Position numbers and translations under genes: made by a program. Positions 27,902-46,531 of a stretch of DNA of 64,000 nucleotides are shown here, in pieces; positions within the stretch are counted from its first letter, which is position 1, and every line of letters begins with the position of its first letter. Below the pieces are notes generated by a model. The model had not been told where the DNA came from. It worked only from the letters and a program-made list of their open reading frames with translations, and did not search any database. This DNA is from an uncultured bacterium. GTDB taxonomy: Bacteria > Actinomycetota > Acidimicrobiia > Spongiisociales > UBA5794. The stretch covers positions 128,001 through 192,000 of the forward strand of contig CAWDDT010000013.1 in NCBI GenBank assembly GCA_963801165.1. Direction: 5' to 3'.

Positions 27902-29749
27902 TCAGCTCTCGAGTGCCCGGCGCAAAAACGCCGCCATCTGCTCCCGGGTCACGTTGTCGTTGGGACAGAACATGTCGTTGGTCGGCGGATTACAACCTCT
28001 GGTTACCCCGGCAGTGCCCAACTTGTCGATGTTGTCCTCGAACACCGAACCGTCATCATCACTGAACAGATCACCGCCACCATTGTCGGTATAGCCAAGC
28101 GCCCGCACCAAGAACGCCGCCATCTGACCCCTGGTCACATAGTCGTTGGGACAGAACATGTCGTTGGTCGGCGGATCACAGCCTCTGGTTACCCCGGCAG
28201 TGCCCAACTTGTCGATGTTGTCCTCGAACACCGAACCGTCATCATCACTGAACAGATCACCGCCACCATTGTCGGTATAGCCAAGCGCCCGCACCAAGAA
28301 CGCCGCCATCTGACCCCTGGTCACATAGTCCTTGGGGCAGAACTCGTCGTTGGCGGGCGGGTTGCAGCCGAGCGTGATGGCCGCTGCAGCCAGCCAGCAG
28401 ATATCGGCTTCGAAGACGTTTGAAGAGTCGACGTCGGTAAACCCGTGTGTACATCCACCGGGCGGCGTGGTCGTCCCCTCCATGTCCACTTCGTAGACGT
28501 CGGCGTTTCCGGTGTCGTTCGAGTCGAATTCCTCGAAAGTCTGGAACGCAACGAACCGACCATCTCCCGAGATCGCCGGCTCGTTCAGGTAGCTGCCGCT
28601 GGTTGACGTACCCGGTGAACCGTCGCCGAACACCGACACCACCACGCCGGAGTCGGTCTGACGGTCGTAGACGACGACGTCGGCAAAGCCGTTAGCGTCA
28701 CCATAGATGTCCTGACCGGCAGTGAAGGTCACGTACCGGCCGTCGTCGGAGATGACCGGGAGAGGATCCTGCGAGACGGTGCCACCGCCTCCGGGGATCC
28801 GCTCGACCGTGCCGGTGGCGGCACTGTAGACGAACACATCATTGGTGTCGGCGGGATCGCCGGCGACGTAGTTGGTGTCGGGCGAGCCGAACGTCACAAA
28901 CCGACCGTCCCCTGATATGGCGAGATCCTCAGGATGGTTGCTCTGCGGACGCGCCCCGCCAATTCGCGGGTTGGCTATCTCGTAGGTGTCGCTCATCCGG
29001 TCGAAGAGAATGACGTCCTTGTACTGGCCGAACTCGCCGGTGGTGAACGCAACATACCGGCCATCGTTGGAGATGTCGGTGGAGCCGTAGGTCGAGCCCG
29101 TCGCGACAAACGCCGATCCGTCGGTGATCCTCTCAGAAGTGCCAGCGACCCGGTCGTAGACGTGCACGCCCCAGTCGTTGGCGGCCCCTGCCGCGTCGTA
29201 GCCGGAGCCGACGAACGCGACGTACATCCCGTCACCCGAGATCGCGGCATCGATTGCGCTGCCTTCGCTCGGAAGCCCGTCGTCTCGGAGCACCCGCTCG
29301 GTTGTTCCGGCGGTCCGGTCCCGGATGAAGATGTCGGGGTGCGCGTTGGTGTCACCCGCCACCAGGTTGTCCGCGGTCGAGGAGAACGCCACATACCGCC
29401 CGTCATCGGAGATGTCCAGCGTCGCGCCGCTGTCGTCGTTGCCTTTGACACCGCTCGAAGAGACGCTGACCAGCTCGATGTCACCGGTCATCACATCCTT
29501 GACGAACACGTCGTTGTCCCCTGTGTCCCCGGGAACGAGAGTGTCCTCTGATGAGCGAAACGCCACGTATCGCCCATCGTCGGACACCGCAACAGGCCCG
29601 ATGCCCCCATGACCCGTCCCATCGGCCGAGACGCTCACCCAGATGATGCTCTGGTCGGCCTCGGCCGCGGGTGCTGCCATCACTACGGCGGGTGCCGCGA
29701 CGGTTGCCACCAGCACGATGTGTACGAGGTATCCAACAACACGTTTCAT
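27902..29749 (-). CDS. Secreted TolB/PD40-type beta-propeller protein with three C-terminal SLH domains
   Basis: Signal peptide; repeated (I/V)SxDGR(Y/F)VAF blades; three xTxGCxPPxNDxFCPxDxVTRxQMAAFLxRAL modules. Confidence 0.88.
   Translation of the reverse strand: MKRVVGYLVHIVLVATVAAPAVVMAAPAAEADQSIIWVSVSADGTGHGGIGPVAVSDDGRYVAFRSSEDTLVPGDTGDNDVFVKDVMTGDIELVSVSSSGVKGNDDSGATLDISDDGRYVAFSSTADNLVAGDTNAHPDIFIRDRTAGTTERVLRDDGLPSEGSAIDAAISGDGMYVAFVGSGYDAAGAANDWGVHVYDRVAGTSERITDGSAFVATGSTYGSTDISNDGRYVAFTTGEFGQYKDVILFDRMSDTYEIANPRIGGARPQSNHPEDLAISGDGRFVTFGSPDTNYVAGDPADTNDVFVYSAATGTVERIPGGGGTVSQDPLPVISDDGRYVTFTAGQDIYGDANGFADVVVYDRQTDSGVVVSVFGDGSPGTSTSGSYLNEPAISGDGRFVAFQTFEEFDSNDTGNADVYEVDMEGTTTPPGGCTHGFTDVDSSNVFEADICWLAAAAITLGCNPPANDEFCPKDYVTRGQMAAFLVRALGYTDNGGGDLFSDDDGSVFEDNIDKLGTAGVTRGCDPPTNDMFCPNDYVTRGQMAAFLVRALGYTDNGGGDLFSDDDGSVFEDNIDKLGTAGVTRGCNPPTNDMFCPNDNVTREQMAAFLRRALES
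27959..28330. repeat. Near-identical 186-bp tandem duplication of one SLH module
   Basis: 27959-28144 and 28145-28330 differ at only about two positions. Confidence 0.9.
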
Positions 29750-32815: not shown

Positions 32816-32889
32816 CGCATCTCGTTCGGTCGAGGACACGTGGCGAAGATCGCCTTCCATGGCAGGCACTTCTCGACGTCTCCACCTCG

Positions 32890-32963
32890 TCGGGCTGGCC
32901 AGATTTGAACTGGCGACCCCCTGCTCCCAAAGCAGGTGCGCTACCAAACTGCGCTACAGCCCG
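32890..32963 (-). tRNA. tRNA-Pro(TGG)
   Basis: CGGGCTGTAGCGCAGTTTGGTAGCGCACCTGCTTTGGGAGCAGG...GTTCAAATCTGGCCAGCCCGA. Confidence 0.95.
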
Positions 32964-33025
32964 TGGTAGCGCCATTGTTGCAGGTCTCCGTAGGTCTGTC
33001 GTACCGGCTTGATACGTTGTGCAGC

Positions 33026-33730
33026 ATGAGACCTCGAATACCCAACCGCTTGCAGCAGCGGGCATCCGGATGGAACCACCTGTCCAATCGACAGCGTTCC
33101 GATCTAGGCAAAGAACTACGCCGCCTCGGCTTGATGCAAAGCGAAATCCGAGAGATCATTCCGGTGGCGAAATCCACCCTGTCCTACTGGTGCCGCGACG
33201 TTCAATTGACTCAGAAACAGGTCGACAAGATCAGGCAACGCCGTTATTCGACTGCGGGCGGGCGTCGCGACACTCAGGCCAAGAGGCGAGAAGAGATCCG
33301 AGTCCTTCGAACCGAGGCCCAACAGCAAGCTACTGAGTGGTCCCGAGATCCGCTGTTTGCGGCTGGAGTCGCTCTCTACTGGGCGGAGGGATCCAAGACC
33401 CGCAATCACTTTTCGATCGCTAACACCGATCCGGCATTGCTACGCGTGTTCATTGGGTGGGTTCGCCAGTATCTCGATACCTCTGCAGATTTCCGGCTTT
33501 GCCTCCACCTCCACGAGGGCAACTGCGAAGAGGCCGCCAAGACGTATTGGAGAGCGGAGCTGGGCCTCCCAACAGCACGGTTCACCAAGACATACGTCAA
33601 ACCGCGCGGCACAGGACACAGGAAGAATCGCATACCGGCGGGTGTGTGTCGAGTTCTGGTATGCCGGGGAGGAGACCACTGGCAACGAACAATGCAATGG
33701 ATTGACAACATGAGTGAGTGCATGGTCTGA
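33026..33730 (+). CDS. tRNA-associated HTH + LAGLIDADG-like hypothetical protein
   Basis: HTH (LRRLG..QSEI...VAKSTLSYW), then GVALYWAEGSK...ANTDP..LRVF...LHLH...YW...LGLP...FTK; lies between tRNA-Pro and tRNA-Lys. Confidence 0.7.
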   Translation: MRPRIPNRLQQRASGWNHLSNRQRSDLGKELRRLGLMQSEIREIIPVAKSTLSYWCRDVQLTQKQVDKIRQRRYSTAGGRRDTQAKRREEIRVLRTEAQQQATEWSRDPLFAAGVALYWAEGSKTRNHFSIANTDPALLRVFIGWVRQYLDTSADFRLCLHLHEGNCEEAAKTYWRAELGLPTARFTKTYVKPRGTGHRKNRIPAGVCRVLVCRGGDHWQRTMQWIDNMSECMV

Positions 33731-33750: not shown

Positions 33751-33824
33751 GGGTCGCTAGCTCAATCAGGCAGAGCACCGGACTCTTAATCCGTAGGTTC
33801 AGGGTTCGATTCCCTGGCGACCCA
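33751..33824 (+). tRNA. tRNA-Lys(CTT)
   Basis: GGGTCGCTAGCTCAATCAGGCAGAGCACCGGACTCTTAATCCGTAGG...GGTTCGATTCCCTGGCGACCCA; extended -10 TGcTACAAT just upstream. Confidence 0.95.
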
Positions 33825-33870
33825 CTGCCGCCAGCGCTTACCGAGATCGATTGCTGTGGCGGCGTGTCAT

Positions 33871-33954
33871 GCGGGCGTGGCGGAAATGGAAGACGCGCCA
33901 GGTTTAGGTCCTGGTGGGCGAAAGCCCGTGGGGGTTCGAGTCCCTTCGCCCGCA
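33871..33954 (+). tRNA. tRNA-Leu(TAG), integration target (attL)
   Basis: GCGGGCGTGGCGGAAATGGAAGACGCGCCAGGTTTAGGTCCTGGTGGGCGAAAGCCCGTGGGGGTTCGAGTCCCTTCGCCCGCA; long variable arm. Confidence 0.95.
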
Positions 33955-34029
33955 CTTGAGCCAGATACCCGCCCATCAGGGGATTCTGCCTCGCGGGCGG
34001 GTCCGCCGCCGGTCGACGAAGACAATCGT

Positions 34030-34051
34030 TTCTACCCAATCTTCTACCCGA
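34030..34051 (+). repeat. Putative integrase arm-type sites (TTCTACCC x2), left end
   Basis: ttctacccaatcttctacccga; the same doublet occurs at 46341-46363 near the right end. Confidence 0.7.
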
Positions 34052-34825
34052 CCTCGTAGCGAGTCCAGAGGGGAACCGGGGCGATTAGCCATCGTTGCGC
34101 TCCGCACCGCGACCGCATGCCGATGCGCGGCAGCCAGTACCGTCTGATGTCGGCTCGTGCTTTCGCATGTGGGCCGTGGCGCTAACTGGCAGCAAGCTGG
34201 AAGGTCGCGTCGTGTGTGAACGTCGTCAGCGCCGTCTCGTCGCTCTGGCTGCCACTCTCAAACCTCCTTGAAGGTGTGAGCGGGGACCTGCTGGTCGTCA
34301 GACCGCTCGAGGTATTGCCGGGGGATGTCCGACGTGGCTTTGAGTGTCGCCGGGTGATTGGACCCCCGACGAGGCTCGCTTGTTCGACGGGTTATGAGCC
34401 CTTTCGGGTTCCCTTCATCATTTCGCGTTATCGCTCAATAGCCCGTGAGCCTGGGGTCCTGCGGGATCAGCGTGCTTCCTGATTCCGGCAGATGACCCCT
34501 CGTGACGCCCCGTCCGTTGGAAGGTTCGTTAGAAGAATGGCGTTCAGACCATGGGTCTTCGCCCTGCCGTGGCACCCACGCCCGGCGCCTCGGAACCACC
34601 TGATGGACGTCTTGTACGGTGGTGGCCGGTTTTGAAGACCGTTCGGGGCATTTCTCGGAAGTCGGCGACTCGCTGGGGATTCTGGCGTAAACCCTTATGA
34701 CACAATGGTTTACGACCACTCATCATCGTTGGTCATCTCGCGGTGGTTTGCATCGTTTCTCGTTCTCCCGCGCCCCCAGCGCGCCCCGAGATGCGGAAGA
34801 CTGCTCGCCGCGCTCACGCCCGGAT

Positions 34826-35150
34826 TCAGTCGCGGAGGGTTCTGAGAATGTCCTTCATGAGCAAGACGAGATGGAGGGCGTCGGTCGGTGACGGCTCGAA
34901 CTCGGGGATGAGATGGAGGTGGAAGTCGCGGGCCTGCGGTGTCTCGGCGTGAACAGCAAGCCCCGGCATCCGATCTCAGTGCCGAGCTGCGCCGTCCGGC
35001 TGATGGCGTCGGCGAGGAGACCGGCGCCGAGCCCGCGGCCCTCGTGCTCGCTCGACATCCCGAGAAGAACCAGCAGCGCCACCGACTGTGGGATAGCGGC
35101 CGGCACCATTGCTAACCCGGGTCGGAGCGTCCTCGGCGCACTCCCGGATA
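34826..35150 (-). pseudogene. Truncated, frameshifted GNAT acetyltransferase (AtaT/TacT toxin-like)
   Basis: APRTLRPGLA...PQSVALL...HEGRGLGAGLLADAISR...IGCRGLL, then after a 1-nt shift near 34955 VHAETPQARDFHLHLIPEFEPSPTDALHLVLLMKDI; N-terminus missing. Confidence 0.8.
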
Positions 35151-35253
35151 GCCACCGACCAACGAGCGCCAGCGTGAGTGCCGATGCAGAGCAGCATTTG
35201 AACTGCGCGATATCGCTCGGGAATTGATGATCTGCGATATCCATGCCATAGGC

Positions 35254-36573
35254 ATGACCGATGGGCGAGATTTTCGTGTGCCCATTGCGGAGATTCTCGG
35301 CCAGAATGGAGTCGTGGAATCCCGACCGCCCCTCGTAGGTGCACCCGCGCCGGAGCAGCAAGCAACCCGTTCCCTCGTCTTCTTGGCCGTGGTGGGCATT
35401 GCTGCCGGACTCTTTGGGTATCTTCTTGGAGTGACTGCCAACAGCGGTCAGGAGCCGGACCCGCCGAACGGGTTTCTTGCTCCTGTGGTATCTGGCGCCA
35501 CGACCGATACAAAGCAGGAGAATGACCGGACAGCGTCATCGTCGACAAGAGTGCCGGCGCTGGGTGCGACTAATGGTGCCACCTCTATGCCGCCGGTGCC
35601 AGGCCTTGTATCCGGTCCTGCCCTGCCGCAGGATCTACGTAGCTCGAGGTTCCGTCTCTTTCGGGGGGTGTGGCCGGAGCTCACGCTCGAGGAATGGACA
35701 ACCGAAGGTATCACGGCATCCGTACAGCTGCCGTGGCTTGCGAGTGGGCTGTCTGCCGACCAATCCGACGAACTGTTCGCATTCACCGCGCCGTCAGCCA
35801 CCGGGCAGACTCTCTATGTAGGCAGAAACAACATGTATGTAGCGGTATCAGCCGAACTTGCGGGAGGATGGTCATGGCACGGTTCTGAACCTGGGAAAGC
35901 AGCCTGGATCGAGGCGAGTGATGACGGGCGAGTAATGGTGTTCGGCCGACTTCAAGCAGAGATCTTGGGTGATCGTGGAGAGTATCTCGATGTAGCGGTA
36001 AATGCGCGGCACATCGGCGGAGCGCAACCAGATGAGTCGATCGTGGGACTTACGAGGTTTGGGATCGTGCTCCGCTCGTTCGACGAATCGGGACGGGCCA
36101 AGCTCGTCGCCCTTGACGGTGAAGTAGTGGCAGAAGCTGAGGGTATATTGCCGCTCGCCATCTCCGCCGACGGCTATGGATTGGCGGTTGTTCGATCGGA
36201 GGACCAGATTCAGTACGTCATCACCGACGAGGAGTTGAACCCTGTGACCAATCTCGGCCGCTATGACACGACAGCCGATTGGGTCGAATGGTCGCCGAGT
36301 GGCGAATACGTCGCATTCACACACACCGCTTTCCAAGATCGGGCATCGGACAGCGAGGTCCACCTTGAGATTTGGACCAGAAACGGACAGCCCGTGTTGG
36401 ACGTCCCGATACGTGCCGCAGTGTGGGATGGCGCTTGGACCGCTGATGAGTCGCGAGTAGTCATGGTGGCGAGCGATGCCGGTCCATGGCTTATCGCCAA
36501 CCCATCGACCGGCCAAATCCAAGCCCAGACCGTTGCGGCGGTGGCGGTGGCCGAGATAGACGCCAGCGGGTGA
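35254..36573 (+). CDS. Membrane-anchored extracytoplasmic protein, probable beta-propeller
   Basis: One TM helix (LVFLAVVGIAAGLFGYLLGV), Pro/Thr/Ser linker, TolB-like blades (ISADG, WSPSGEYVAF, WTADESRV); start uncertain (35224-35254). Confidence 0.7.
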   Translation: MTDGRDFRVPIAEILGQNGVVESRPPLVGAPAPEQQATRSLVFLAVVGIAAGLFGYLLGVTANSGQEPDPPNGFLAPVVSGATTDTKQENDRTASSSTRVPALGATNGATSMPPVPGLVSGPALPQDLRSSRFRLFRGVWPELTLEEWTTEGITASVQLPWLASGLSADQSDELFAFTAPSATGQTLYVGRNNMYVAVSAELAGGWSWHGSEPGKAAWIEASDDGRVMVFGRLQAEILGDRGEYLDVAVNARHIGGAQPDESIVGLTRFGIVLRSFDESGRAKLVALDGEVVAEAEGILPLAISADGYGLAVVRSEDQIQYVITDEELNPVTNLGRYDTTADWVEWSPSGEYVAFTHTAFQDRASDSEVHLEIWTRNGQPVLDVPIRAAVWDGAWTADESRVVMVASDAGPWLIANPSTGQIQAQTVAAVAVAEIDASG

Positions 36574-36778: not shown

Positions 36779-37405
36779 CTAGTCCAGGAGCCCTTGCTGT
36801 GCTGCCGCCATGAGCGCTTCGGTTTTGTTGGACGCGTCTAGCTTCCGGTACGTCGTAGCCAAAAGACGCTGCATGTTCCGTTCGCTATAGCCGATTGTGT
36901 CGGCCAACCTGCCAATCGTCACCCCGGAGGCGAGGATACGAAGCCAGTCAATCTCCTGGTCCGTCACTTGCATCGCGCCTTGACCCCTCGTGTCGGTTGG
37001 CGTCCAATCGCGAAAGACAACATGAGGCGCAATGGAGAGTCCCGCTCCGACGGCCTCTACGGCAACTACTAGCCAGTCGACAGACATCGCCACTGGAAGA
37101 ACGACCCACGCGCCGTATCGAAAGAGGGGTTCCGATAGGGCGGGCGAGGCAACCAGCGCGATGGTTGGGATCTGGGGAGTGTTCTCGCGAATTCGCAAGA
37201 ACAAGTCACAATCCTGTCGAGAGGCGCAGCCTGCTACCAGCAACGATGCGGACTCGCCCGCCACTGCCCACGCAACCGGATGGCTAACTTGCTGCACGTT
37301 CATACCGGCGGCTACGAGCACTGACTCGGCGCCAGCGGCTGTGAGTGGTGCAAGGCTTTTGGTTGCGATCCCGATCCGCATGTGTGCCCCCCTGTCGAAA
37401 CCCAC
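36779..37405 (-). CDS. LuxR/NarL-type regulator with a degenerate receiver-like domain
   Basis: C-terminal HTH TDQEIDWLRILASGVTIGRLADTIGYSERNMQRLL...YRKL..NKTEAL..A.QQGLL; divergent from the cargo operon. Confidence 0.85.
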   Translation of the reverse strand: MGFDRGAHMRIGIATKSLAPLTAAGAESVLVAAGMNVQQVSHPVAWAVAGESASLLVAGCASRQDCDLFLRIRENTPQIPTIALVASPALSEPLFRYGAWVVLPVAMSVDWLVVAVEAVGAGLSIAPHVVFRDWTPTDTRGQGAMQVTDQEIDWLRILASGVTIGRLADTIGYSERNMQRLLATTYRKLDASNKTEALMAAAQQGLLD

Positions 37406-37780
37406 ACGCCCCGCATTATCAGCCTACCCGATCACCAGACTTCTCGGCTCGGTATGCGCGAGAGCTTCCGGCGTCGCTTTCCCAATGACGGCGGACGCGA
37501 GAGGTGGCTTCTGCATATCGACCCATTGACGAGGGAGTCAGGCGCGAGGCCAGAGGCGTGGACCGCATTAGGCGGGGGGTTTGTGCCTGCATTGCGACGA
37601 CAAATGGCTGGCCGCTTCGGGCCAACCTTTGTCGTTGACGCGAGCTGGTGTCGTATCGAGAGGGATAGGGCAGGAGGTTTGTGAACTGATGCTGAGACCG
37701 GGCATAGACGACAGCGCTGGTAGGTTCGAGGCCGGGATCTTGCAGAGTCTCCTCGTGGTCGCCGCGGGTACGGGGGGAGT

Positions 37781-38368
37781 GTGATGTCTGCGAGGCATCT
37801 TGATCGCCGGGAAGTCCTCAGAATGATGGGGGTCTTTGTAGGAGGGGAAGTCGTCCTTACGAATCTTGGGGCCAGTCCTGCACGTGCCAGATCGGAGAAT
37901 CGGTACCGTAGCGACGCCATCGTTGTGGGATCGGTCATGGCTGTCGAAGCGGATTCGAATCAGATTGCGATCCGATCTGCTGTCCGATCTGAGGGATTCG
38001 TGGATATCGTCTGCTCGTCCAGGACGGTGTTCCTGCGTGACAGGCCTGCTGCAATCTCTGACTTCCTGACCGGAGACAAGATTGCGGTATTCGGAAGCCG
38101 CCAAGGCCAGTCACTCTTTGCAGCGACGGCTGTCCAGCCCGCCTATGAGGCGATGTTTGTTGATGTTGAATGGCCGCTCCCGGAGCGTGATATCACTATC
38201 CGAACTGAGCGGGGCGATCTCCTCATTCCCAACGGTGTCCTCAAGGTTGGTGAGACTGACCCAGCTCTCGTAGGTGATTTGACCCGAGTTCAGGCAACAG
38301 TTCGTCACGAGCCAGCGACGAACCGCTACGTGGCCGCCCTGATAGGCAACGGAGGCCACCACTCATGA
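37781..38368 (+). CDS. Tat-exported hypothetical protein, OB-fold/DUF5666-like
   Basis: DRREVL twin-arginine motif, ARA cleavage site; G.V.AV....I.I....V.....T.F......ISDF..GDKIAVFG...AATAV pattern; GGGGGAG RBS. Confidence 0.65.
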   Translation: MMSARHLDRREVLRMMGVFVGGEVVLTNLGASPARARSENRYRSDAIVVGSVMAVEADSNQIAIRSAVRSEGFVDIVCSSRTVFLRDRPAAISDFLTGDKIAVFGSRQGQSLFAATAVQPAYEAMFVDVEWPLPERDITIRTERGDLLIPNGVLKVGETDPALVGDLTRVQATVRHEPATNRYVAALIGNGGHHS

Positions 38369-38934
38369 GCGTTCCGTCGGTTCTTGGCTGGATTGTCATT
38401 GTGACTTTGTCATGGGCCGGTGCAGCGAAGCTCCTTAACCCAGCCGCGACACTTGGTGGTATCCGGTCTACGCTTCGGGCTGTACCGATACCTCGCTGGT
38501 CGGTCTGGTTCTTGGTCGCAGCGGAACTCGGTATCAGCGCCGCCTTGGCGTTCGGATTGCTTAGCGGCAGTTTCGTCCAACCGCCAGCGCTAGGAGCTGG
38601 GATCCTTCTCGCATTGTTCACGGTGATAAACGCCGTGGACATGATCCAGGGCGGTGAAAGTTCGTGTGCGTGCTTCGGCGCCACCGACATCTATCCGATA
38701 AGATTCAAGTCCTTCGCCTTGGCCAGATCTGCGTTCCTCAGCTCGCTTGCATTTGTCCTAGCCGTCGCCCCACCGGGCCAAACCAGTGCCGTCGAAGAGA
38801 CGAAGGCCGCCATCCTCGCAGTGAGCATCGTCGCGATGGCAGCCGTGATTCTAAGGGCTGTCCAATCGGTACGCCTGTGGCCCGCGCACACAGTCAAAGT
38901 CAAAGAGGTAGTCGAAGAGGTTCTGGCGGTCTAG
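38365..38934 (+). CDS. MauE/DoxX-family membrane protein
   Basis: AGAAKLLNP, LVAAELG, LLALFT, CACFG (CxCFG signature), ARS; ATGA overlap with the upstream gene. Confidence 0.85.
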   Translation: MSVPSVLGWIVIVTLSWAGAAKLLNPAATLGGIRSTLRAVPIPRWSVWFLVAAELGISAALAFGLLSGSFVQPPALGAGILLALFTVINAVDMIQGGESSCACFGATDIYPIRFKSFALARSAFLSSLAFVLAVAPPGQTSAVEETKAAILAVSIVAMAAVILRAVQSVRLWPAHTVKVKEVVEEVLAV

Positions 38935-38982
38935 GAGCGATGAACATGCACCCAACAGGTACGAAACGACCGGGAGAGATCT

Positions 38983-39603
38983 ATGCCTGAAATGGATACC
39001 GCCTTGGTTGCAGCTCTCTTGGCATGGCAGGTCGTTGTAGCCGTTCTGATAGCAGTCCTTTTCCGGCAGGTCGCGCTGCTGTCAATCGCTATGAGTCAAC
39101 AAGACCCACCAGCGCGCAACTCAAATCTGGCAGTTGGGGTCCCAATCCCCCAAGAACTTGACTCAGACATGGTTGACCCCGCCGAAACAACGTACGTGTT
39201 CTGGCTATCCGTTGGCTGCGACGCGTGCGTCAGAGTTGCAGAAGAACTGGGCACCGCGATTTCGACGGGTGCATGGACCGAATCAACAGTTGCGTTGATC
39301 ACGGGGCCAGCCACCGCGGCTACGTCGCTATCGGACACAGCAGCCCTTCAGAATCGCACCATCGTCGACCCAGATGCCAGCTCAATAATCGAGACTCTCG
39401 GCCTGACAACGTCACCGTTCGTGATCAAGACCGCGAATGGCGTCGTCAGGGGGTGGAGCACCGTTACAAGCATTCCGGACTTGGAGAAGCTACGAACCGA
39501 TCCCGCCAGCGGCGATACTGACAAACGGGAGGAAGAGCAGATCGCATCGCCGAAATCTGAAGAGGCAGGGTCTACTCCATCAACATCGGGGTCGCACCGA
39601 TGA
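38983..39603 (+). CDS. MauD-like membrane-anchored thioredoxin-fold protein
   Basis: N-terminal TM ending AVLFRQVALL, LAVG.PIP, FWLSVGCDAC (CxxC), TSPF (cis-Pro position), GVVRG. Confidence 0.82.
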   Translation: MPEMDTALVAALLAWQVVVAVLIAVLFRQVALLSIAMSQQDPPARNSNLAVGVPIPQELDSDMVDPAETTYVFWLSVGCDACVRVAEELGTAISTGAWTESTVALITGPATAATSLSDTAALQNRTIVDPDASSIIETLGLTTSPFVIKTANGVVRGWSTVTSIPDLEKLRTDPASGDTDKREEEQIASPKSEEAGSTPSTSGSHR

Positions 39604-39983
39604 TCAGCTCGCAGCGAACGGACGAGGACCTGCGGATATCGAACTCCGAGTCTGTTCCCAGCGGACCCACGTTCTTGACGCGGAGCGCATTTCTTGCTCG
39701 TGCCGCTGCCGTAGCGTTTGGCACTGCGGCCTTCCTGTTCGGCCTGCCAATGCCCTCCGCTCTGGCGTCGCATAACAGGTGTTGTCATGAATCCACTCCC
39801 CTCTGTTCTTGCTGCAACGGAGACACCTGCTGCGCTTCCGGCTGCACCATCCGGTGCGGCGATTGCCCTGGTGGTGGGTGCTCGTGGACGTGTTGCTACG
39901 GGACTGCGCTTTGGAACTGTAAGGACTGGAACGATCCAGCAGTAGGGAACTGCGTATGCATCGAAGGGTTGAGTCAATGCTAG
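39600..39983 (+). CDS. Secreted Cys-rich peptide (17 Cys in a ~71-aa mature region), in the MauA position
   Basis: ATGA-coupled to the mauD-like gene; Tat-like LTRSAFLA, hydrophobic stretch, ALA|S site; mature region CCHESTPLCSCCNGDTCCASGCTIRCGDCPGGGCSWTCCYGTALWNCKDWNDPAVGNCVCIEGLSQC. Confidence 0.85.
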   Translation: MISSQRTDEDLRISNSESVPSGPTFLTRSAFLARAAAVAFGTAAFLFGLPMPSALASHNRCCHESTPLCSCCNGDTCCASGCTIRCGDCPGGGCSWTCCYGTALWNCKDWNDPAVGNCVCIEGLSQC

Positions 39984-40038
39984 GTGGCCACTGGAAACGA
40001 TCCATCGGCAGCTCGACTTATGACGACATTGGAGCACC

Positions 40039-40740
40039 ATGAACACTGGACTGGTCGCCGTCCTATCGGCCGCAGCAATCACTGCCGCTCTCGTACAGCA
40101 AACACTTCCGTGAGGCGTCAACCTGGCACAAGACACCAGGTTTCCCGAAGGTCTTCGGGGCAGAGCCAAACCAAGACTCATTGCCAGCAGCTGGCACCTC
40201 ATCTTGCTGGGCGCTACCAGCGCACTGGCAGGCGCCGCGATAGGGCTTGGTCTCGGGGCTCTCAGCTCTGTGCTCAATCTGCCTCAACAGGGTTCCGTCG
40301 TTGCAGCTGCGACCCTCGGGATGGTGCTTGGCGGTCGAGAAGTGGCTGGTGCCAGTCTGAATCTGTGGCAGATCGACCGCGAAACACCGCGAGTTTGGGC
40401 AGAACGATCTCCGTTCTCCTGGGCAGTGAGAACGGGAACCCTCATCGGAACAGGGTTCGTCACCCGTATCGGCTACACCGTGTTCTACGTGGCTCCGATC
40501 GGTATCCTTCTTGCAGCAGACTCAATCAGCGGGGCAATCATCCTGGGAGCATACGGTGCCACAAGAGGCTTCTCGTCCCTGGTGCTCAACCGCCGCCTGG
40601 CCCTGGATGCCGGATTCGATACGCTAATGATGATTCTTTTCGGGTTGAGGACTAGAGCTCGGGTCCTCTCTGGAGTGGCGACGACACTCGTTTCCCTCAC
40701 AGGGCTGGCGTGGGCGCTCGTCTCAGCCGCCCAAGCCTAG
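40039..40740 (+). CDS. MauF/DsbD-like membrane protein with in-frame TGA (candidate selenoprotein, 233 aa)
   Basis: GGAG RBS then ATG 40039, in frame with the 40204-40740 ORF: MNTGLVAVLSAAAITAALVQQTLP-TGA-GVNL... Downstream motifs WQIDRETPRVW, GTLIGTGFVTRI and YGATRG match MauF-like proteins. Confidence 0.75.
40114..40160 (+). promoter_or_regulatory. Candidate bacterial SECIS element
   Basis: Directly after TGA 40111-40113: hairpin AACCTGG-cacaagaca-CCAGGTT (40120-40142), then CCCGA-AGGTCT-TCGGG (40144-40159). Confidence 0.5.
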
Positions 40741-41118
40741 AAACCAGGGGATCCCTTTGGTGTTCGTTGCGCACCCAAGCCCGACGTTGACGGCGAACCG
40801 GTCTTGTTTGGGCCTGTGAGCGTCGTCGTAGACGCGACCGGATCCTCGGTAGCAGGTTCGATTGTTCACAATCTGGGCGACAACGTGGGGACCGTGTACC
40901 ACAATAATCCGGAGCGAGCGAGGTCTCGGAGCGCTCCATTCCGTTTGGGAGGAGGGCCGAGCATCGCCAAACATAGTTGTGCGCTCAAGGAGTCGGATCG
41001 GTCAACGGTGCCCTAGATCACCTACCGCCCCGCACGTTATCGCACCAGCGTCCGGCAACCGGCAGTCGGCGCTGGCAAGACAGTGTCTGGATCGGGCTAG
41101 GCGTGGAGTGCCCGTATG

Positions 41119-43866
41119 TCAGCGGCCGATGTCGGGGATGTGCCGGGTCCAGGCGTGCTCGGTGATGTGGCGTTGCCTGGCGGTTTCGATGCTCTGGTTA
41201 ATCTGCTGCCAAATGCGGTTGTCGTCGGGGCTGAGATCCGGCTTGTCGTCGTGGTCGGTTGGGTGCGTTGCTTCTTGCTGATCGCCTCCGAGCTGGCTGT
41301 GTCCGAGCGAGGGGTTCAACACCCTGTCGGCTTCGAGGCGCGTTCGTTGGGTGATGGCGGGCTCGTCGATCCAATCCCGGATGATGGCTTGGGTGAGGAT
41401 ATCGGCTGCCGTTTCGCCTTCGTTGGTGACGACGTAGGCGTGGTTGGAGCTTCGGCCGCGGGTCAGCGGCGTGTAGAGACCGCGGCCGTCGACGGGGCCG
41501 TCAACGAGGAGGAGACCGGTGTCGACGGTGCGGCCTTGGGTGGCATGGCTGGTCTGCGCATAGCCAAGCTCGAGATCCTCAGCGGCGTAGTCGGCGGGAA
41601 GACGCACCCTGCCCGAGCGTCCGGTGACGGTGACGGCGCCGTCGGTGTGGATAGCTTCGATCGTCCAGTGGTCCCGGTTCTTGACCATGGCGCCGCGGTC
41701 GGTGCGCAGGGTGCGCTGGTTACGGCGGGTAACCACCTCGTCGCCGACGAGCAGCCGCTCACGGGCAACGTCGAGGGCCGGCCCGTCCGGGTCGAGCTCA
41801 CCGGCGTCGATGCGTCTCTGTTGGGCATGCTGGTTGAGCCGGTTGACGGTGTGGTTGGTGTTGGCCATCAACGCCACCGACTCGCCCCGCCGCCGCGCCT
41901 GATACCAGGCGTCGACGACGGCGGCCTCCATCTCGTTGGGGGTGCCGTCGTGGAGGCGACCGTGACGCTGATACTCGCCGAGCACGCCGATGTCGCCTTG
42001 GCGGAGACGCCGGGTGGCGTCGGCTTCCCAGTCGTGGGTGAAGCGGTGGATGTGGTCAAGTTCGATGGCACCACAGGTGTCGATGAGGTGGGCGAACATG
42101 CCGCCCCGACCAACAGCGGAGAACTGGCGGGGATCACCCACCATCACCACCCGCCATCCTTTCACGTCGGCGAGATCGACGAATGCCGCGAGTTTCGGGG
42201 TGGAGACGGTGCCGGCTTCATCAACGATCACCGTCGAACCCCGCGGCAAATCGTATCCCGGTTGTGGTGGCCGGTCGGGCCGGGAGTGTTCGTAGAGGAG
42301 CTTGTCCAGCGTGTCGGCCATCATGGTGGTTTCTGCGGCGAGCACCTCGGCGGCCGCTGCGGTGGCTGCCACCCCGAACACCGTCTGGCCGCGGTGCTGT
42401 AGGTAGGCGACGGCGGGGGTGAGGGCGACGGTCTTGCCGGATCCGGCGGGTCCGACGATCAGCTCCAACGGTACGCTACCGGCTACTGCCCGACACGCTT
42501 CGGACTGGCCCACACTCAAACCGGCCGTATCGAGACCCCGACGTGGGGTGTTGATGATGTCGGCGAAACGGCGCAGGCGTTGAGCCCATTCCACGATCCG
42601 TTCCTCCTCCTCAAGAATCGCTCCGGTGGTGAGGGCCCGGTCGACGGCGGCTTCGGCGATGGGGCGCCCATCACGGCGCAACACGGCACCAGACGGCACG
42701 GGTGGGGACAGGTCGACACAGCGGTCCGCCGCAACACGGTTGGCGAGGTCCTGCAGGAAGCTGCACAGACGATCCGGTTCGACGGTGACATTGGTGGGGA
42801 CCTGGGCGGCGAGCTCACGGACCAGCTCGGCGGGACGCCACGTCGACTGCCGCTCCCCCAAAGCCTCCAACGCCCCCTCCACCATCCCTGTCATTGTCGC
42901 CTGGTCGATGCCCGCCGCCCGACGGACCCGACCCACCGCGCCCACGGCGATGTCGTGTGGCTCGAAACCGCGAGCGGCCGCCCGCATCCGCCACCCGGCA
43001 TGCAACTCGCCCGCAGCGTGATCGTGAGTCTTAGCGGGGCGACTATCGAGCACGGCTTCGCGTTCCAAGCGCCACCGCTCCCGTCCAGTCGGTTCCCGCC
43101 CGAGGTCGCTGCGGAACCGAACCAGTTTTCCGCCAACCCGCTGCTCGACGTCATGGCTGCGTTGGGAGAACTCGGCCAGTATCTCCGCATCGACACCGAC
43201 CATCTCGGCAATCCCATTGTCAGGTTGGTGCCATCGGACACCGAGGCGGCGGGTCAGCTCGGCCCGTAGCCCGGCGTGATACAACCCCGACAGGGTCCGC
43301 TGATCCATCTTGATGGTGCGGGCATCGAGCGCCAACCACCGTCCGTCCGGAGCCTTGACTCTGTTGGCGATCACCGCATGGGTATGCAGCTGCGGGTCGA
43401 GGCGACGGCTGGTGTGCTGACGAAACACCCCCACCACGATCCCTTCGGCGTCAACACACATCACATGACCCCGCCGCCGCATCCTCGTGTGCGCTTGGGA
43501 CTCGACCCAACCCAACACCGCGTCGACCGCCTGGCCATGCGCCTCGGTCACCTGTGCCCTGAGGTGTTCGTCGCCCATGGCGAACAGCACCGACACCGAC
43601 TTCGGCGCCGAAAAGGTCGCATCGAACCCCCGCACCGAGTCATCCCCGAAGCGGCGACCCAACCGCTCCCCCGTCGTCGGATGCAATCCGGCCATCACCG
43701 CCAGAAACGCCTCATCCTCGACCACACCATCCAGACCCAACTCGGCGGCGCCGTATCCGAACCAGCGACCCGGCGGCTCACCACTGTCGAGGTAGTACGA
43801 CGGGAGCTGCTCGGTGTAATAGCGACCCGCCTCGGCACCTTTCAACGTCGTCACCCGCACCGTCAC
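41119..43866 (-). CDS. mobF: MobF (TrwC-type) relaxase-helicase
   Basis: N-terminal YY..YY, FDATFSAPKSVS, HTSRRLDPQLHTHAVI (HUH), EFSQRS; helicase motifs GPAGSGKT, VDEAG, VGDPRQ, GYAQTSHATQGRT. Confidence 0.95.
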   Translation of the reverse strand: MTVRVTTLKGAEAGRYYTEQLPSYYLDSGEPPGRWFGYGAAELGLDGVVEDEAFLAVMAGLHPTTGERLGRRFGDDSVRGFDATFSAPKSVSVLFAMGDEHLRAQVTEAHGQAVDAVLGWVESQAHTRMRRRGHVMCVDAEGIVVGVFRQHTSRRLDPQLHTHAVIANRVKAPDGRWLALDARTIKMDQRTLSGLYHAGLRAELTRRLGVRWHQPDNGIAEMVGVDAEILAEFSQRSHDVEQRVGGKLVRFRSDLGREPTGRERWRLEREAVLDSRPAKTHDHAAGELHAGWRMRAAARGFEPHDIAVGAVGRVRRAAGIDQATMTGMVEGALEALGERQSTWRPAELVRELAAQVPTNVTVEPDRLCSFLQDLANRVAADRCVDLSPPVPSGAVLRRDGRPIAEAAVDRALTTGAILEEEERIVEWAQRLRRFADIINTPRRGLDTAGLSVGQSEACRAVAGSVPLELIVGPAGSGKTVALTPAVAYLQHRGQTVFGVAATAAAAEVLAAETTMMADTLDKLLYEHSRPDRPPQPGYDLPRGSTVIVDEAGTVSTPKLAAFVDLADVKGWRVVMVGDPRQFSAVGRGGMFAHLIDTCGAIELDHIHRFTHDWEADATRRLRQGDIGVLGEYQRHGRLHDGTPNEMEAAVVDAWYQARRRGESVALMANTNHTVNRLNQHAQQRRIDAGELDPDGPALDVARERLLVGDEVVTRRNQRTLRTDRGAMVKNRDHWTIEAIHTDGAVTVTGRSGRVRLPADYAAEDLELGYAQTSHATQGRTVDTGLLLVDGPVDGRGLYTPLTRGRSSNHAYVVTNEGETAADILTQAIIRDWIDEPAITQRTRLEADRVLNPSLGHSQLGGDQQEATHPTDHDDKPDLSPDDNRIWQQINQSIETARQRHITEHAWTRHIPDIGR

Positions 43867-43962: not shown

Positions 43963-44367
43963 TCAGTCGGCGGTGGCTACTCGGTCGAAGAGATCGAGTT
44001 GGTCGGTAGTAGCGCGTTGGCGAGTTCGCGACCGTCGGCTGGTGGTTGTGACGGTTGCAGGATCGGGGTTGGCGGGAAGTTCTGGACCCATCGCCGCTCG
44101 GGCCTGCGGCGTCCCCGTGGACTCCGGGTCGTCGTTGCTGCTGGAGACGTCCACGCTCGACAGGTCGGCACCGATCATCTCCTCGAGGGCTGAGCGTGGC
44201 ACCCGCAACACGTGACCGAGATCGACTACCGGCAGCCCGGAGTGACCGCCGGTCTCCCGCCACTCCCGCGCCATGGCATACGCCTTGGTGCGCCCGATCC
44301 GCAACAGCTCTCCGGCCTCTTCGACCGTCAGCAGCAACGGAATCGGTACCCCATTCACAATATACAA
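43963..44367 (-). CDS. Excisionase-like HTH protein (start uncertain)
   Basis: LLTVEEAGELLRIGRTKAYAMA...LPVVDLGHVLRVPRSAL; divergent from the XRE gene. Confidence 0.85.
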   Translation of the reverse strand: MYIVNGVPIPLLLTVEEAGELLRIGRTKAYAMAREWRETGGHSGLPVVDLGHVLRVPRSALEEMIGADLSSVDVSSSNDDPESTGTPQARAAMGPELPANPDPATVTTTSRRSRTRQRATTDQLDLFDRVATAD

Positions 44368-44453
44368 CCTTTGCAGGCACTACTCATAGACAGTATGATA
44401 GCAGCGTGCTCACACATTTCACACACAAGCGTCATGTTGTGTACGATACGGAG

Positions 44454-45197
44454 ATGCCCGCACATCCAGATCCACCACCCAGCGGCGAGGTCGACCTCAA
44501 CCAGATCGTCGCCTACAACCTGCGCGAAGCCCGCCAACTACGCGGATGGACCCAAGAAGGGCTCGCCGACCGGCTCGAGCCCTACCTCGGCCAACGCCTC
44601 ACCCAGGCCGGCATCTCCTCGATGGAAAGGGCCTGGGACGGAGACCGCCGACGAGAGTTCGACGCACACGAACTGCTGATCTTCGCCATGGTGTTCGACC
44701 TCCCCATGCTCTACTTCCTACTCCCCCCACCCGGCGACCGCCGCCGCCTTCAAGCCACCAGCGCCCAAGTCAACCATCTGTACGCCTGGCTCCTCGGCCG
44801 GCACGGACAGGTTGAACCGGTGTACGAACGGCTCCGCCAGCTCGGCATCACCGACCCCACCGCAGCCGAAGAGACCGTCGAGAAGATCACCGGGATCCCC
44901 GGCGCAGCAAAGCAGTGGAGCTACCGGGAACGGCGCAAGGAGCTGCTCCTCGCCATCCTCAACGAGCACGCCGACGACTTCGACAAGAACATCGAAGAAC
45001 TGGGACGCATCGTCGACCACCTCCGCCAGGTCGGCATCCGCGGCTTCGTCGCCGAACACACCCACGACGAAGACTTCACCTACCGAGAAGGCCACCCACC
45101 ACGGACGGTACGTCAGGACCCTCTCGTTAGCCGTGAGAACGAGGCAGCACGAGACGACTCAAGCGATGAGAGGGCGACACCGGGAGGTAGGCCGTGA
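44454..45197 (+). CDS. XRE-family transcriptional regulator
   Basis: Start at MPAHPD; VAYNLREARQLRGWTQEGLADRL...QAGISSMER; overlaps the integrase start (GTGA). Confidence 0.88.
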   Translation: MPAHPDPPPSGEVDLNQIVAYNLREARQLRGWTQEGLADRLEPYLGQRLTQAGISSMERAWDGDRRREFDAHELLIFAMVFDLPMLYFLLPPPGDRRRLQATSAQVNHLYAWLLGRHGQVEPVYERLRQLGITDPTAAEETVEKITGIPGAAKQWSYRERRKELLLAILNEHADDFDKNIEELGRIVDHLRQVGIRGFVAEHTHDEDFTYREGHPPRTVRQDPLVSRENEAARDDSSDERATPGGRP

Positions 45198-46393
45198 GGC
45201 GTCGAGGGCACATCGCCCGGAAGGGCCGGAAGTTCTACGCAGTCGTCGACCTTGGGCGCGACGAGCTGAGCCGCAGGCGCCGTCGGCGATGGTCACGCGG
45301 GTTCGAGACGGAGAGCGAGGCCGACGCCGAGCTCGTCCGGCTCCTCCACTCCCTCGACCAAGGCGACTCGATCGAGCGAACCAAGCTCACCGTCGAGCGG
45401 TACCTCTTGGAGCGGTGGCTCCCCATTGCCGAAGGAAACCTGGCGGTTACCACGCAGAAGGAGTACCGGGTGACCGTGACGGCGTACGTCGTCCCTCACA
45501 TCGGGCATCTTCGGCTCAATCGAGTCGATGCCACAACGATCGACCGACTGTACGTGAAACTGCGCAGGGAGGGTGGCCGCGATGGTCGCCCGCTGTCCGC
45601 CAAGACGGTCCGGAACATCCATGGTGTGCTGTCGGCGGCGTTCGGGTTCGCCGTCAAGAAAGGCCTGCTCACCCGCAACCCGGTGGCGCTCGCCGAAACA
45701 CCGGACGCGGGGCGACCCGACACGGCTCCACCGTGGACCGCCCAAGAGCTTCGGTCCTTCATCAACCACGTCGACGGTGACCGCCTGGAAGCGCTGTGGT
45801 GGATGATCCCGTTCACCGGGATGCGCCGCTCCGAGGCGCTTGGCCTCGCCTGGGACGACGTGGATCTCGACCGCGGGACGATCGCCGTGACCCATACGGT
45901 CGTGGACGCCGACGGTGGACCAGTAAGGCGCCGCGACACCAAGACGCGGCAAAGCCGACGCCCGATCTCGCTCGACGTCGACACGCTGGGAAAGGTCCGC
46001 GAGCATCGCCGCCGTCAGCTCGAGGAGCGGATGTTCGTAGGCGCCGGCTACAACGACATCGGTCTCGTGTTCTGCCGCCCCGACGGGTCGACGCTGCGTC
46101 CCGATTGGGTATCACGACGCTTCGCAAGGATCAGAGACGAGGCCGGTCTACGGCGAATCACCCTTCGCGATCTCCGTCACGTATGGGCGACACTCGCCCT
46201 GGAGTCAGGCATCCACCCCAAAGTCGTCCAGGAACGGCTCGGCCACTCCTCGATCGCCATGACAATGGACCAGTACTCACACGTCATCGAAGGTCTCGAC
46301 CGCCAAGCAGCGGCCACGGTGGCCGACCTGGTGCTCCGACCTTCTACCCAGACTTCTACCCAACCCCCCGCCATCGGACGCGATCAGGCATAA
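45194..46393 (+). CDS. int: Tyrosine recombinase/integrase
   Basis: Arm-binding N-terminus, TGMRRSEALGL, RDLRH (R replaces the usual H of HxLRH), QERLGHS, catalytic Y in DQYSH; next to attR. Confidence 0.95.
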   Translation: MRRRGHIARKGRKFYAVVDLGRDELSRRRRRRWSRGFETESEADAELVRLLHSLDQGDSIERTKLTVERYLLERWLPIAEGNLAVTTQKEYRVTVTAYVVPHIGHLRLNRVDATTIDRLYVKLRREGGRDGRPLSAKTVRNIHGVLSAAFGFAVKKGLLTRNPVALAETPDAGRPDTAPPWTAQELRSFINHVDGDRLEALWWMIPFTGMRRSEALGLAWDDVDLDRGTIAVTHTVVDADGGPVRRRDTKTRQSRRPISLDVDTLGKVREHRRRQLEERMFVGAGYNDIGLVFCRPDGSTLRPDWVSRRFARIRDEAGLRRITLRDLRHVWATLALESGIHPKVVQERLGHSSIAMTMDQYSHVIEGLDRQAAATVADLVLRPSTQTSTQPPAIGRDQA

Positions 46394-46476: not shown

Positions 46477-46531
46477 AGGTTTAGGTCCTGGTGAGCAATG
46501 CTCGTGGGGGTTCGAGTCCCTTCGCCCGCAC
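46477..46531 (+). repeat. attR: displaced 3' half of tRNA-Leu
   Basis: AGGTTTAGGTCCTGGTGAGCAATGCTCGTGGGGGTTCGAGTCCCTTCGCCCGCAC matches 33900-33955 except in the variable arm. Confidence 0.93.

Follow-up and report, generated by a model that had tools for sequence, protein, structure and literature searches.

A cysteine-rich mini-protein of a rare family, probably encoded together with its own oxidative-folding catalysts on a mobilisable island of an uncultured acidimicrobial bacterium

The DNA considered here is a stretch of 64,000 nucleotides from an uncultured bacterium of the Acidimicrobiia (Spongiisociales, UBA5794; GenBank assembly GCA_963801165.1, contig CAWDDT010000013.1, positions 128,001 to 192,000). 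We refer to this whole stretch as the window and number its positions from its first letter. At 39600..39983, on the forward (+) strand, it carries an open reading frame (ORF) for a cysteine-rich precursor of 127 aa. This is the last of four + strand genes (37781-39983) that form a tight unit and that encode, in order, a protein with a twin-arginine (RR) signal, a MauE-family membrane thiol oxidase, a protein with a CxxC motif and the precursor itself. An earlier note, made from the sequence alone, had recognised in this precursor an echo of MauA, the light chain of methylamine dehydrogenase (MADH), and had pointed to its odd number of Cys residues and to its unusual leader. The ORF is a real gene and the observation behind that note is confirmed.

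The precursor contains 17 Cys residues, at positions 61, 62, 69, 71, 72, 77, 78, 82, 86, 89, 94, 98, 99, 107, 118, 120 and 127. They include four CC pairs (61-62, 71-72, 77-78 and 98-99), and three Trp residues are found at positions 96, 105 and 110. Reading the cleavage site by the A-x-A rule, we place it after S-A-L-A, at residue 56. Cleavage there would separate a leader (residues 1-56; 39600..39767, + strand), made of a 27-aa n-region, the sequence T-R-S-A-F-L at residues 27-32 and a mildly hydrophobic h-region, from a mature domain (39768..39983, + strand, stop codon included) of 71 aa with all 17 Cys and the three Trp, the last residue being a Cys. On recount, every detail that could be counted in the earlier note (17 Cys, four CC, 3 Trp, about 71 aa, TRSAFL) was correct. 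Cysteine accounts for 24% of the mature domain, where both CC and CxC motifs are present, and the domain is acidic, with an isoelectric point (pI) of ~4.9.

Cys-richness by itself is within chance expectation in a window of such high GC content (63%). A six-frame screen revealed a second Cys-rich frame, at 52123-52575 on the reverse (-) strand, with 16 Cys in 60 aa; as a gene it was rejected as an artefact, since it runs antisense to the Thr/Ala-rich linker that belongs to a substrate-binding lipoprotein (52186-53532). The ORF at 39600-39983 is considered more than chance because it has relatives. In addition, its ATG shares the tetranucleotide ATGA with the stop codon of the upstream CxxC gene (at 39600), and its GC content at third codon positions (GC3) is 0.67, against 0.57 and 0.63 in the two long opposite-strand ORFs that overlap it.

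To collect the relatives, we searched 1.84 billion cluster representatives by phmmer with the precursor and obtained 27 proteins at E<=1e-3, the best homologue having E=2.8e-17 and 47% identity. A profile search of a 5.8-billion-protein collection brought seven more members; all 11 rows of that search come from JGI, Logan or ENA, on contigs of 0.9-44 kb, are devoid of any Pfam domain and are either named 'hypothetical protein' or nameless. One protein of 1836 aa (P0008), whose match is confined to the leader, was left out. The family as used here comprises 34 members, the window's peptide and 33 homologues, aligned in 34 rows in precursor numbering (alignment A5). When the window was translated in six frames, the hidden Markov model (HMM) of the family matched one ORF, 39600-39983 (E=1.6e-34).

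The other searches for relatives were negative. A word-indexed search with the single Cys-rich sequence gave no match, and tblastn against plasmids and phages found no member of the family. A scan of a genome collection with the pattern G[ED]CP[GSN]GGx[SCF]W, which the window's peptide itself fits, so that its genome is presumably outside that collection, returned 33 stretches, 0 of which could be confirmed as belonging to the family. With a degenerate DNA pattern for C-x-C-C-x4-C-C-x2-G-C we found at least 120 genome loci, and the family HMM run on their 4154 ORFs gave only chance matches at the level of the pattern. At E<=0.01, Pfam matched 0 of the 34 members; NCBIfam produced a single chance match to DapF (1/34, E=0.005) and nothing else. 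Neither the precursor nor its mature part matched a family of Pfam or of NCBIfam at E<=0.1, or one of Pfam at E<=10. The Cys-rich family is rare, unnamed and unannotated. In two of its members, P0013 (219 aa) and P0021 (221 aa), ~100 residues that include four further Cys are added at the C-terminus, the total being still odd (17); fusion of the Cys-rich domain to another part is therefore possible.

All members share the same Cys/Trp scaffold. C62, C69, C72, W96, C107, D109, C118, C120 and C127 are invariant in 34/34 rows, C78, C82 and C89 are kept in at least 32 of the 34, and C71, C77 and C99 in 30 of them. The Trp/Cys spacing to which the earlier note drew attention is kept among the homologues, since W96, the tryptophan of its SW motif, is invariant together with D109. 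Position 110 is always aromatic (W in 26 members, Y in 6 and F in 2), position 105 is Y in 19 and W in 6 among others, and the C-terminal residue is a Cys in 23 of the 34 members. No conserved His or Met ligand is present in the alignment.

We then considered the number of Cys residues, counting in each member all those located past the leader motif. We found 13 Cys in three members, 14 in one, 15 in 12, 17 in 14 and 19 in four; the count is odd in 33 of the 34. As relatives share counts, these numbers were mapped on two maximum-likelihood trees, one quick and one careful. The trees imply at least 13 changes of the Cys count, with parity flipped in one of them only (binomial P=0.0017 for at most one parity flip out of 13 at a probability of one half each). 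The sole parity change falls on the branch leading to P0020 (14 Cys), which is the longest terminal branch (2.07). The odd count noticed in a single peptide is, in fact, a rule of the family and not a quirk.

The variable Cys residues also change together. Of the 34 rows, 14 have a Cys in column 61 as well as in column 98 and 19 have none in either; column 61 is Cys alone in one row and column 98 in none. Columns 95 and 108 agree in every row, 19 rows having a Cys at each of the two and 15 a Cys at neither. Columns 71 and 77 are jointly lost in three rows, a Cys in column 70 accompanies an extra N-terminal Cys, and C86 and C94 form an extra pair that is private to the window's peptide. These observations give a coherent picture in which the variable Cys would be gained and lost two at a time, like disulfide partners, one Cys always being left over. 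All the Cys but one would accordingly be engaged in disulfide bonds. P0020, a single metagenomic sequence, is the only member with an even count and also the only one lacking C89, which lies in a loop G-[D/E]-C-P-x-G-G, 7 residues ahead of W96; since P0020 alone is even and alone lacks this residue, C89 is, on the basis of that one member, our candidate for the reserved Cys.

The structure was predicted by AlphaFold2 with the family alignment. The whole precursor reached a predicted local distance difference test (pLDDT) of 74, with values of 77-91 in the Cys-rich part; for the 71 mature residues alone, pLDDT was 86.4 and the predicted template modelling (TM) score, pTM, was 0.70. In the mature model, DSSP assigned three strands, antiparallel, which span residues 95-100, 103-112 and 116-126 of the precursor. 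If strands 1 and 2 form a two-residue hairpin, as the DSSP string would suggest, residue 95 should be opposite residue 108, its covarying Cys partner. Both models, precursor and mature, were submitted to Foldseek against the PDB and gave 0 matches at E<=1e-3. The best ones were two bacteriocins, laterosporulin (4ozk) and laterosporulin3 (6lwy), with E of 0.8-1.1 (0.79-0.83 at best), probability of 0.28-0.30, TM of 0.46-0.48 normalised by the 49-residue target and a root-mean-square deviation (rmsd) of 5.9-6.2 A, which is not significant. The viral fold library BFVD also gave 0 matches at E<=1e-3. The mature domain is confidently predicted to fold as a three-stranded sheet with no significant match in the PDB.

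The leader was compared among the members. The family consensus is [F/L]-G-R-[S/N]-R-F-L and not RRxFL: among the 34 members, the motif is R-[S/N]-R in 25, R-T-R in 1, S-N-R in 1 and R-S-[A/E/Q] in 3, this last form, with one Arg only, being that of the window's peptide and its two nearest relatives. Among the first 27 members, 5 have a consecutive Arg pair. With a median of 22 aa, the n-region is long, and it is itself conserved; the h-region is mildly hydrophobic (mean Kyte-Doolittle value 1.26), and a K or R is found just ahead of the cleavage site, in the c-region, in 16 of the 34. All members (34/34) have their own leader with an h-region and an A-x-A site. The window's leader fails the S/T-R-R-x-F-L-K motif of twin-arginine translocation (Tat), having T-R-S-A-F-L in its place, and the earlier note was right in calling it non-canonical; the family consensus departs from RRxFL likewise. 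In the Tat-dependent signal of E. coli penicillin amidase, as described in PMC1182353, an Asn lies between the two Arg (R-N-R), and the second Arg of the Tat motif is reported there to tolerate Asn or Gln. In these respects, the family leader looks Tat-like, and the precursor would be exported by means of it, whether by Tat or by another route.

The possible kinship with MauA, or with QhpC, the gamma chain of quinohaemoprotein amine dehydrogenase (QHNDH), was also addressed. Curated models of MauA are available, namely Me-amine-dh_L in Pfam and a light-chain model for tryptophan tryptophylquinone (TTQ) in NCBIfam. The PDB chain set that we searched includes MADH light chains as well as QHNDH gamma chains. 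At E<=10 against all PDB chains, phmmer with the precursor gave 4 matches and hmmsearch with a 27-row profile gave 2, none of them MADH or QHNDH gamma, and no MADH or QHNDH chain appeared among the 50 Foldseek matches listed for either model. Only W96 is invariant, therefore the pair of conserved Trp expected for TTQ is absent. MauA or QhpC kinship was rejected on the basis of Pfam, NCBIfam, PDB sequence and profile searches and Foldseek, no direct pairwise alignment with MauA having been made. Hence the 'MauA-like echo' is not supported by homology, given that family-model, PDB sequence, profile and fold searches were all negative. In the interpretation of the earlier note, the odd Cys count and the Trp/Cys spacing hold, while kinship or fold similarity with MauA is not supported.

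Nevertheless, the genetic context is Mau-like: a mauE gene is located two genes upstream of the peptide gene, followed by the gene of the CxxC protein. The MauE protein (38365..38934, + strand) has about five hydrophobic helices and matches PF07291 with E=9.8e-13 and 49 bits, against a cut-off of 27, over profile positions 6-126 of 128. Its only Cys, C101 and C103, are found in the sequence S-S-C-A-C-F-G, in the loop past helix 3, while A-A-K-L-L closes helix 1 and V-A-A-E-L-G lies within helix 2. In a recent preprint (bioRxiv 10.64898/2026.03.05.709764), two MauE proteins were reported to substitute for DsbB in E. coli, the C-x-C being needed as judged by mutagenesis; the same source describes x as usually Gly or Ala, followed by F-G, and mentions a conserved Lys in helix 1 and a conserved Glu in helix 2. 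By its profile match and motifs, the product of 38365-38934 is assigned as a MauE with a matching active site, and the Lys and Glu above would, in our reading and without alignment, be the conserved residues of the preprint. The preprint further indicates that MauA is found in only ~10% of the MauE-bearing species and that MauD, a thioredoxin-fold CxxC protein, hands disulfides to the MADH light chain (bioRxiv 10.64898/2026.03.05.709764).

The next gene (38983..39603, + strand) encodes a protein of 206 aa with one N-terminal membrane helix (residues 3-39) and only two Cys, in C79-D-A-C82. In an Atlas feature search, it scored 0.93-0.96 to Actinomycetota clusters that are thioredoxin-like, with AhpC-TSA, Redoxin or Thioredoxin_2 on 11-35% of their members, or with a TlpA name. 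Together with the CxxC motif, this suggests that it is probably a thioredoxin-like disulfide carrier of the MauD/DsbA type.

The first gene of the unit (37781..38368, + strand) encodes the RR-signal protein of 195 aa, whose twin-arginine motif, LDRREVL, is canonical and whose only Cys is residue 78. It starts either at GTG 37781 or at ATG 37784, which has a GGAG 4 nt ahead of it and would give 194 aa; the copy in the protein collection uses the ATG start. Its stop overlaps the start of mauE in an ATGA, at 38365, as does that of the CxxC gene with the precursor at 39600. One homologue was found (69% identity), in which the RR motif and C78 are kept, the sensitivity of this search being limited by its word index. 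The Atlas leads were 'cell wall protein' (0.92) and DUF5666 (0.82), and we found no Pfam or PDB relative.

On the other side of the peptide gene, 220 bp 3' of it, is a gene (40204..40740, + strand) for a protein of 178 aa without any Cys, multi-pass in the membrane according to its hydropathy and with no family match; a role in immunity or export would be a guess. The 220-bp gap contains a 24-codon ORF (40039-40113, + strand) with a single hydrophobic helix and a GGAG 4 nt ahead of its ATG, which may encode a small membrane protein belonging to the cassette or have arisen by chance. Divergent from the cassette, at 36779..37405 on the - strand, is a gene for a protein of 208 aa with a LuxR/GerE-type helix-turn-helix (HTH), whose match to PF00196 (E=1.3e-3, 18.7 bits) is under the cut-off of 23.5 and which has weak matches to NCBIfam response-regulator models; it is a candidate local regulator. 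When we scanned 37300-41200 for promoters and terminators, sites were no commoner than in shuffled sequence.

The cassette is carried by an island of ~12.6 kb. Its left end is a tRNA-Leu(TAG) gene (33871..33955, + strand; ARAGORN, Rfam), whose 3' half (33900-33955) is the left attachment repeat, and its right end is a copy of that half with 94-95% identity (46477..46531, + strand); the direct repeats, D1 and D2, have a spacing of 12576-12577. Next to the right repeat, on its inner side, is a tyrosine integrase gene (45194..46393, + strand; PF00589, E=2.3e-22), and further inside are genes for an excisionase-like HTH_17 protein (43963..44367, - strand; PF12728, E=2.5e-6) and for a MobF/TrwC relaxase (41119..43866, - strand; PF08751, E=1.1e-81, with AAA_30). 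The best plasmid matches of the relaxase are annotated as MobF relaxases of Iamia, Glutamicibacter and Clavibacter, with ~34% identity; these being Actinomycetota, the island probably sits in an actinobacterial chromosome. Integrase, tRNA repeats and relaxase all being present, this is an integrative mobilisable element in tRNA-Leu; it is regarded as mobilisable and not conjugative because, among the ORFs of the window, we saw no gene for transfer by type IV secretion or by an FtsK-like protein.

The composition of the island also differs from that of its surroundings, with a GC content of 0.58-0.60 over 34-41 kb versus ~0.63-0.65 in the flanks, and a GC3 of 0.59-0.67 in the cargo genes versus 0.79-0.83 in MreB, ValRS and ClpX, the host ORFs of this comparison having been pre-filtered at GC3>=0.68. 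The flanks include housekeeping genes (mreBC, PBP2, RodA, ValRS, ClpX and trigger factor). A further cargo gene (35224..36573, + strand) encodes a protein of 449 aa with one N-terminal membrane helix (residues 46-73) and no Pfam, NCBIfam, PADLOC or PDB relative. The PADLOC defence models matched none of 8 island proteins, Rfam found two tRNAs and nothing else on the island, and tblastn of the window's MauE against plasmids found nothing.

Some other features were noted on the island and next to it. The ORF at 44055-45197 (+ strand), located between the gene of the excisionase-like protein and that of the integrase and with a weak match to HTH_3 (E=1.2e-3, under the cut-off), is probably the repressor or regulator of the element. 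The left 1.3 kb of the island (33956-35223) has no convincing gene; the ORF at 34855-35361 (- strand), with a host-like GC3 of 0.76 and no Pfam match, may be the remnant of a decayed gene. Just outside the island, an ORF of 264 aa (32936-33730, + strand) with no Pfam match lies between tRNA-Pro (32889-32963, - strand) and tRNA-Lys (33751-33825, + strand). Left of this tRNA cluster are a gene for a large ATPase of the STAND type with a LuxR HTH as fusion partner (29951-32590, + strand; AAA_16 and GerE) and one for a secreted protein with PD40 and SLH repeats (27902-29749, - strand), the SLH repeats pointing to attachment to the cell envelope in the host.

The explanation that we favour, and that we hold to be probable with ample room for doubt, is that the locus is a cassette dedicated to the oxidative folding of a secreted mini-protein, which belongs to a rare family, is knotted by disulfides and has one reserved Cys. 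The four + strand genes at 37781-39983 would be translated as one coupled unit, and the precursor would cross the membrane by means of its long leader and be cut after S-A-L-A. The anchored CxxC protein would then donate disulfides into the 71-aa domain and shuffle them, and MauE would re-oxidise the CxxC protein through its C-A-C and pass the electrons on to the quinone pool, a division of labour like those of DsbA/DsbB and MauD/MauE. In the product, 16 of the 17 Cys would form eight disulfides round the three-stranded sheet, and the one Cys that the family conserves outside the intramolecular set would be a free thiol or take part in an intermolecular bond or a cross-link. This folding module would be the cargo of the tRNA-Leu integrative mobilisable island, therefore it could move between hosts bringing its own folding catalysts. 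As for the mature mini-protein, our best guess is a factor of extracellular competition or of the cell surface.

Several points weigh against this explanation. The tie between MauE, the CxxC protein and the Cys-rich family is known from this one island. The 206-aa CxxC protein has no Pfam, NCBIfam (MauD included) or PDB sequence match, so its thioredoxin fold is only inferred. A Tat-like leader implies export in the folded state, which fits poorly with folding outside the cell. The pairwise covariation of the Cys is backed by ~3 independent changes per variable Cys column, and a test of independent pairs had 2 usable pairs, too few for significance. The acidity of the mature domain is unlike that of most cationic antimicrobial peptides. 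Finally, a conserved unpaired Cys is unusual in a purely structural disulfide knot, which therefore indicates something beyond simple oxidative folding.

An unlikely alternative, which nevertheless deserves to be taken seriously, is that the peptide is a secreted antimicrobial of the bacteriocin type, that the 178-aa protein provides immunity or export, and that the island spreads a weapon together with its folding catalysts. As this concerns the function of the product, it is compatible with the oxidative-folding mechanism. The product is small, secreted, disulfide-rich and the cargo of a mobile element, the gene directly downstream encodes a Cys-free multi-pass membrane protein, and the two top Foldseek matches are laterosporulins; defensin-like bacteriocins, the actifensins, have moreover been described in Actinomycetota (PMC6989792). 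However, those matches are not significant (rmsd of ~6 A), the pI of the mature domain is acidic, we found neither an ABC exporter nor a peptidase, the neighbours have no match to PADLOC or to another family, and a conserved unpaired Cys is no hallmark of bacteriocins.

It is less likely still that the reserved Cys is disulfide-linked to C78 of the RR-signal protein in a two-subunit extracellular complex, perhaps co-exported by Tat, as the earlier note had envisaged for export. The RR-signal protein has exactly one Cys, kept with the RR motif in its homologue, the peptide family keeps exactly one unpaired Cys, and both genes belong to one translationally coupled cassette. On the other hand, hitch-hiking with the RR-signal protein is unneeded because the peptide has its own complete leader in 34/34 members, and we found one homologue of the RR-signal protein versus 33 of the peptide, with the limited sensitivity of the word-index search already mentioned.

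Improbable, in our opinion, is a small subunit with a protein-derived cofactor or cross-link, similar to MauA or QhpC, in which the reserved Cys is joined to W96 and/or D109. Such a reading is attractive with respect to the invariance of W96 and D109, the aromatic residue always found at position 110, the Cys that is always left over, the presence of MauE in the context and the long, conserved leader; and P0020, the lone member with an even count, is also alone in lacking C89, seven residues ahead of W96. Precedents exist, as cysteine tryptophylquinone (CTQ) joins Cys37 and Trp43 in QHNDH gamma and Cys-Asp/Glu thioethers occur (PMC7876137). The argument from P0020, however, comes from one metagenomic sequence, whose branch is the longest in the tree, and the second invariant Trp that TTQ needs is absent. 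The PDB contains MADH light chains as well as QHNDH gamma chains, and no likeness to either was detected in sequence, profile or fold. Among the ORFs scanned with Pfam, 7 on the island and 38 elsewhere in the window, we saw no MauB-like heavy chain, MauG-like di-haem peroxidase, radical S-adenosylmethionine (radical-SAM) enzyme, flavoprotein monooxygenase or cytochrome; a QhpB-like subunit and the enzyme types of qhpD, qhpE, qhpF and qhpG were also absent from these ORFs. The specific version, equally improbable, would have the candidate C89 react with W96, in a CTQ-like manner, or with D109, without any known maturase and helped only by MauE and the CxxC protein, the product being a small redox-active subunit, for an extracytoplasmic enzyme or an electron carrier not recognised so far, and possibly the partner of the RR-signal protein.

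We give hardly any credit to the idea of a secreted thiolate metal-binding protein for Cu or Zn, resembling metallothioneins, in which the CC, CxC and CxxC motifs would bind clusters. The Cys content of the mature domain and its CC and CxC motifs would fit, and odd Cys counts are normal for metal clusters, as in metallothionein domains. But the peptide gene follows those of a thiol oxidase and a CxxC carrier, export takes the product to an oxidising compartment, its Cys are gained and lost in pairs with parity kept, no His or Met ligand is conserved, and the confident model, a regular beta-sheet with conserved aromatic residues, is unlike metallothioneins. That the ORF is not a gene at all, being a chance Cys-rich frame in GC-rich DNA, can be practically dismissed: such frames do occur in the window, as at 52123-52575, and two long ORFs overlap this one on the opposite strand, but the idea is refuted by a family of 33 homologues with the same scaffold, and the ATGA shared with the upstream stop, the GC3 values and the confident fold prediction speak against it as well.

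What gives the locus its interest is that MauE has only just been shown to be a DsbB-like oxidase, in the 2026 preprint, and that it is not known to have natural clients beyond methylamine dehydrogenase. With the reading that we favour, the locus would be a compact candidate system, in which an oxidase, a carrier and one extreme client, with 17 Cys in 71 residues, are grouped on a 12.6-kb mobile element, the client coming from an unannotated family with a confidently predicted fold and no PDB match. The odd count, maintained through at least 12 gains or losses of Cys pairs, points to a reserved reactive Cys. If this Cys proved to be used for cross-linking, for covalent dimerisation or in a cofactor, the family would be a new case in protein chemistry; otherwise, the family would still be a useful scaffold and a model for the folding of very disulfide-dense proteins in bacteria.

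One of the closest known systems is the mau cluster, where MauE and a CxxC protein likewise accompany an exported protein that is small, Cys-rich and made with a long leader, and where the labour would be divided in the way proposed here, MauE oxidising the carrier and the carrier oxidising the substrate (bioRxiv 10.64898/2026.03.05.709764). The substrate differs, since the peptide is not related to MauA by sequence, profile or fold and has one invariant Trp, and its family has odd Cys counts (13-19) whereas the six disulfides of MADH, as given in the same preprint, need an even count. In addition, the window lacks mauB, mauG and the remaining mau genes, the CxxC protein has no NCBIfam match, the MauD model included, and the module is on a mobile island. 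Known pairs made of a quinone-linked membrane oxidase and a thioredoxin-fold carrier are DsbB-DsbA and VKOR-thioredoxin; these are housekeeping systems with many substrates, whereas the putative pair described here is translationally coupled to one 17-Cys substrate on a mobile element.

QhpC is, like the mature peptide, a small (~9 kDa) Cys-rich subunit made with a leader, with one Cys used for the Cys-Trp link and with Asp in its cross-links (PMC7876137); in the peptide family, W96, D109 and one spare Cys are conserved. In contrast, QhpC as described in that source has no disulfides and needs QhpD, QhpE, QhpF and QhpG, none of these types being present in the window, and the peptide has no sequence or fold likeness to it. 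In the defensin-like bacteriocins of the laterosporulin and actifensin types, which are small as well, disulfides staple a sheet of three strands. These bacteriocins are cationic and have three disulfides. Laterosporulin, with ~49 residues, differs from our acidic domain of 71 aa and 17 Cys, and its match (E ~0.8) is not significant. With regard to export, the family leader consensus has in common with the Tat signal of penicillin amidase two Arg split by Asn or Ser; the window's peptide and its two nearest relatives differ by having one Arg, and a protein whose disulfides have to be formed outside the cytoplasm would be an odd client of Tat.

A precedent for a private oxidase comes from Streptomyces. 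The decRiPPter study of peptides synthesised ribosomally and then modified post-translationally (RiPPs) lists three candidate families with a mauE gene, and in one of them also a mauD gene, beside precursors with at least 8 Cys (PMC7794033), and our literature search on MauE with cysteine-rich or RiPP precursors found nothing relevant beyond that work. As presented there, these families also combine a private oxidase with a Cys-rich peptide, in genomes without other mau genes. Their precursors differ, being of 46-66 aa with short leaders and, by eye only, with other Cys patterns (PMC7794033, S2 table); none of the families is known to have been characterised, and the product here would be a folded domain of 71 aa behind a leader resembling a signal peptide. 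By this comparison, the idea of private folding by MauE and a thioredoxin-type protein has been noticed already in Streptomyces, and the conserved spare Cys, which it leaves unexplained, would be what keeps the reading of a protein-derived cofactor alive.

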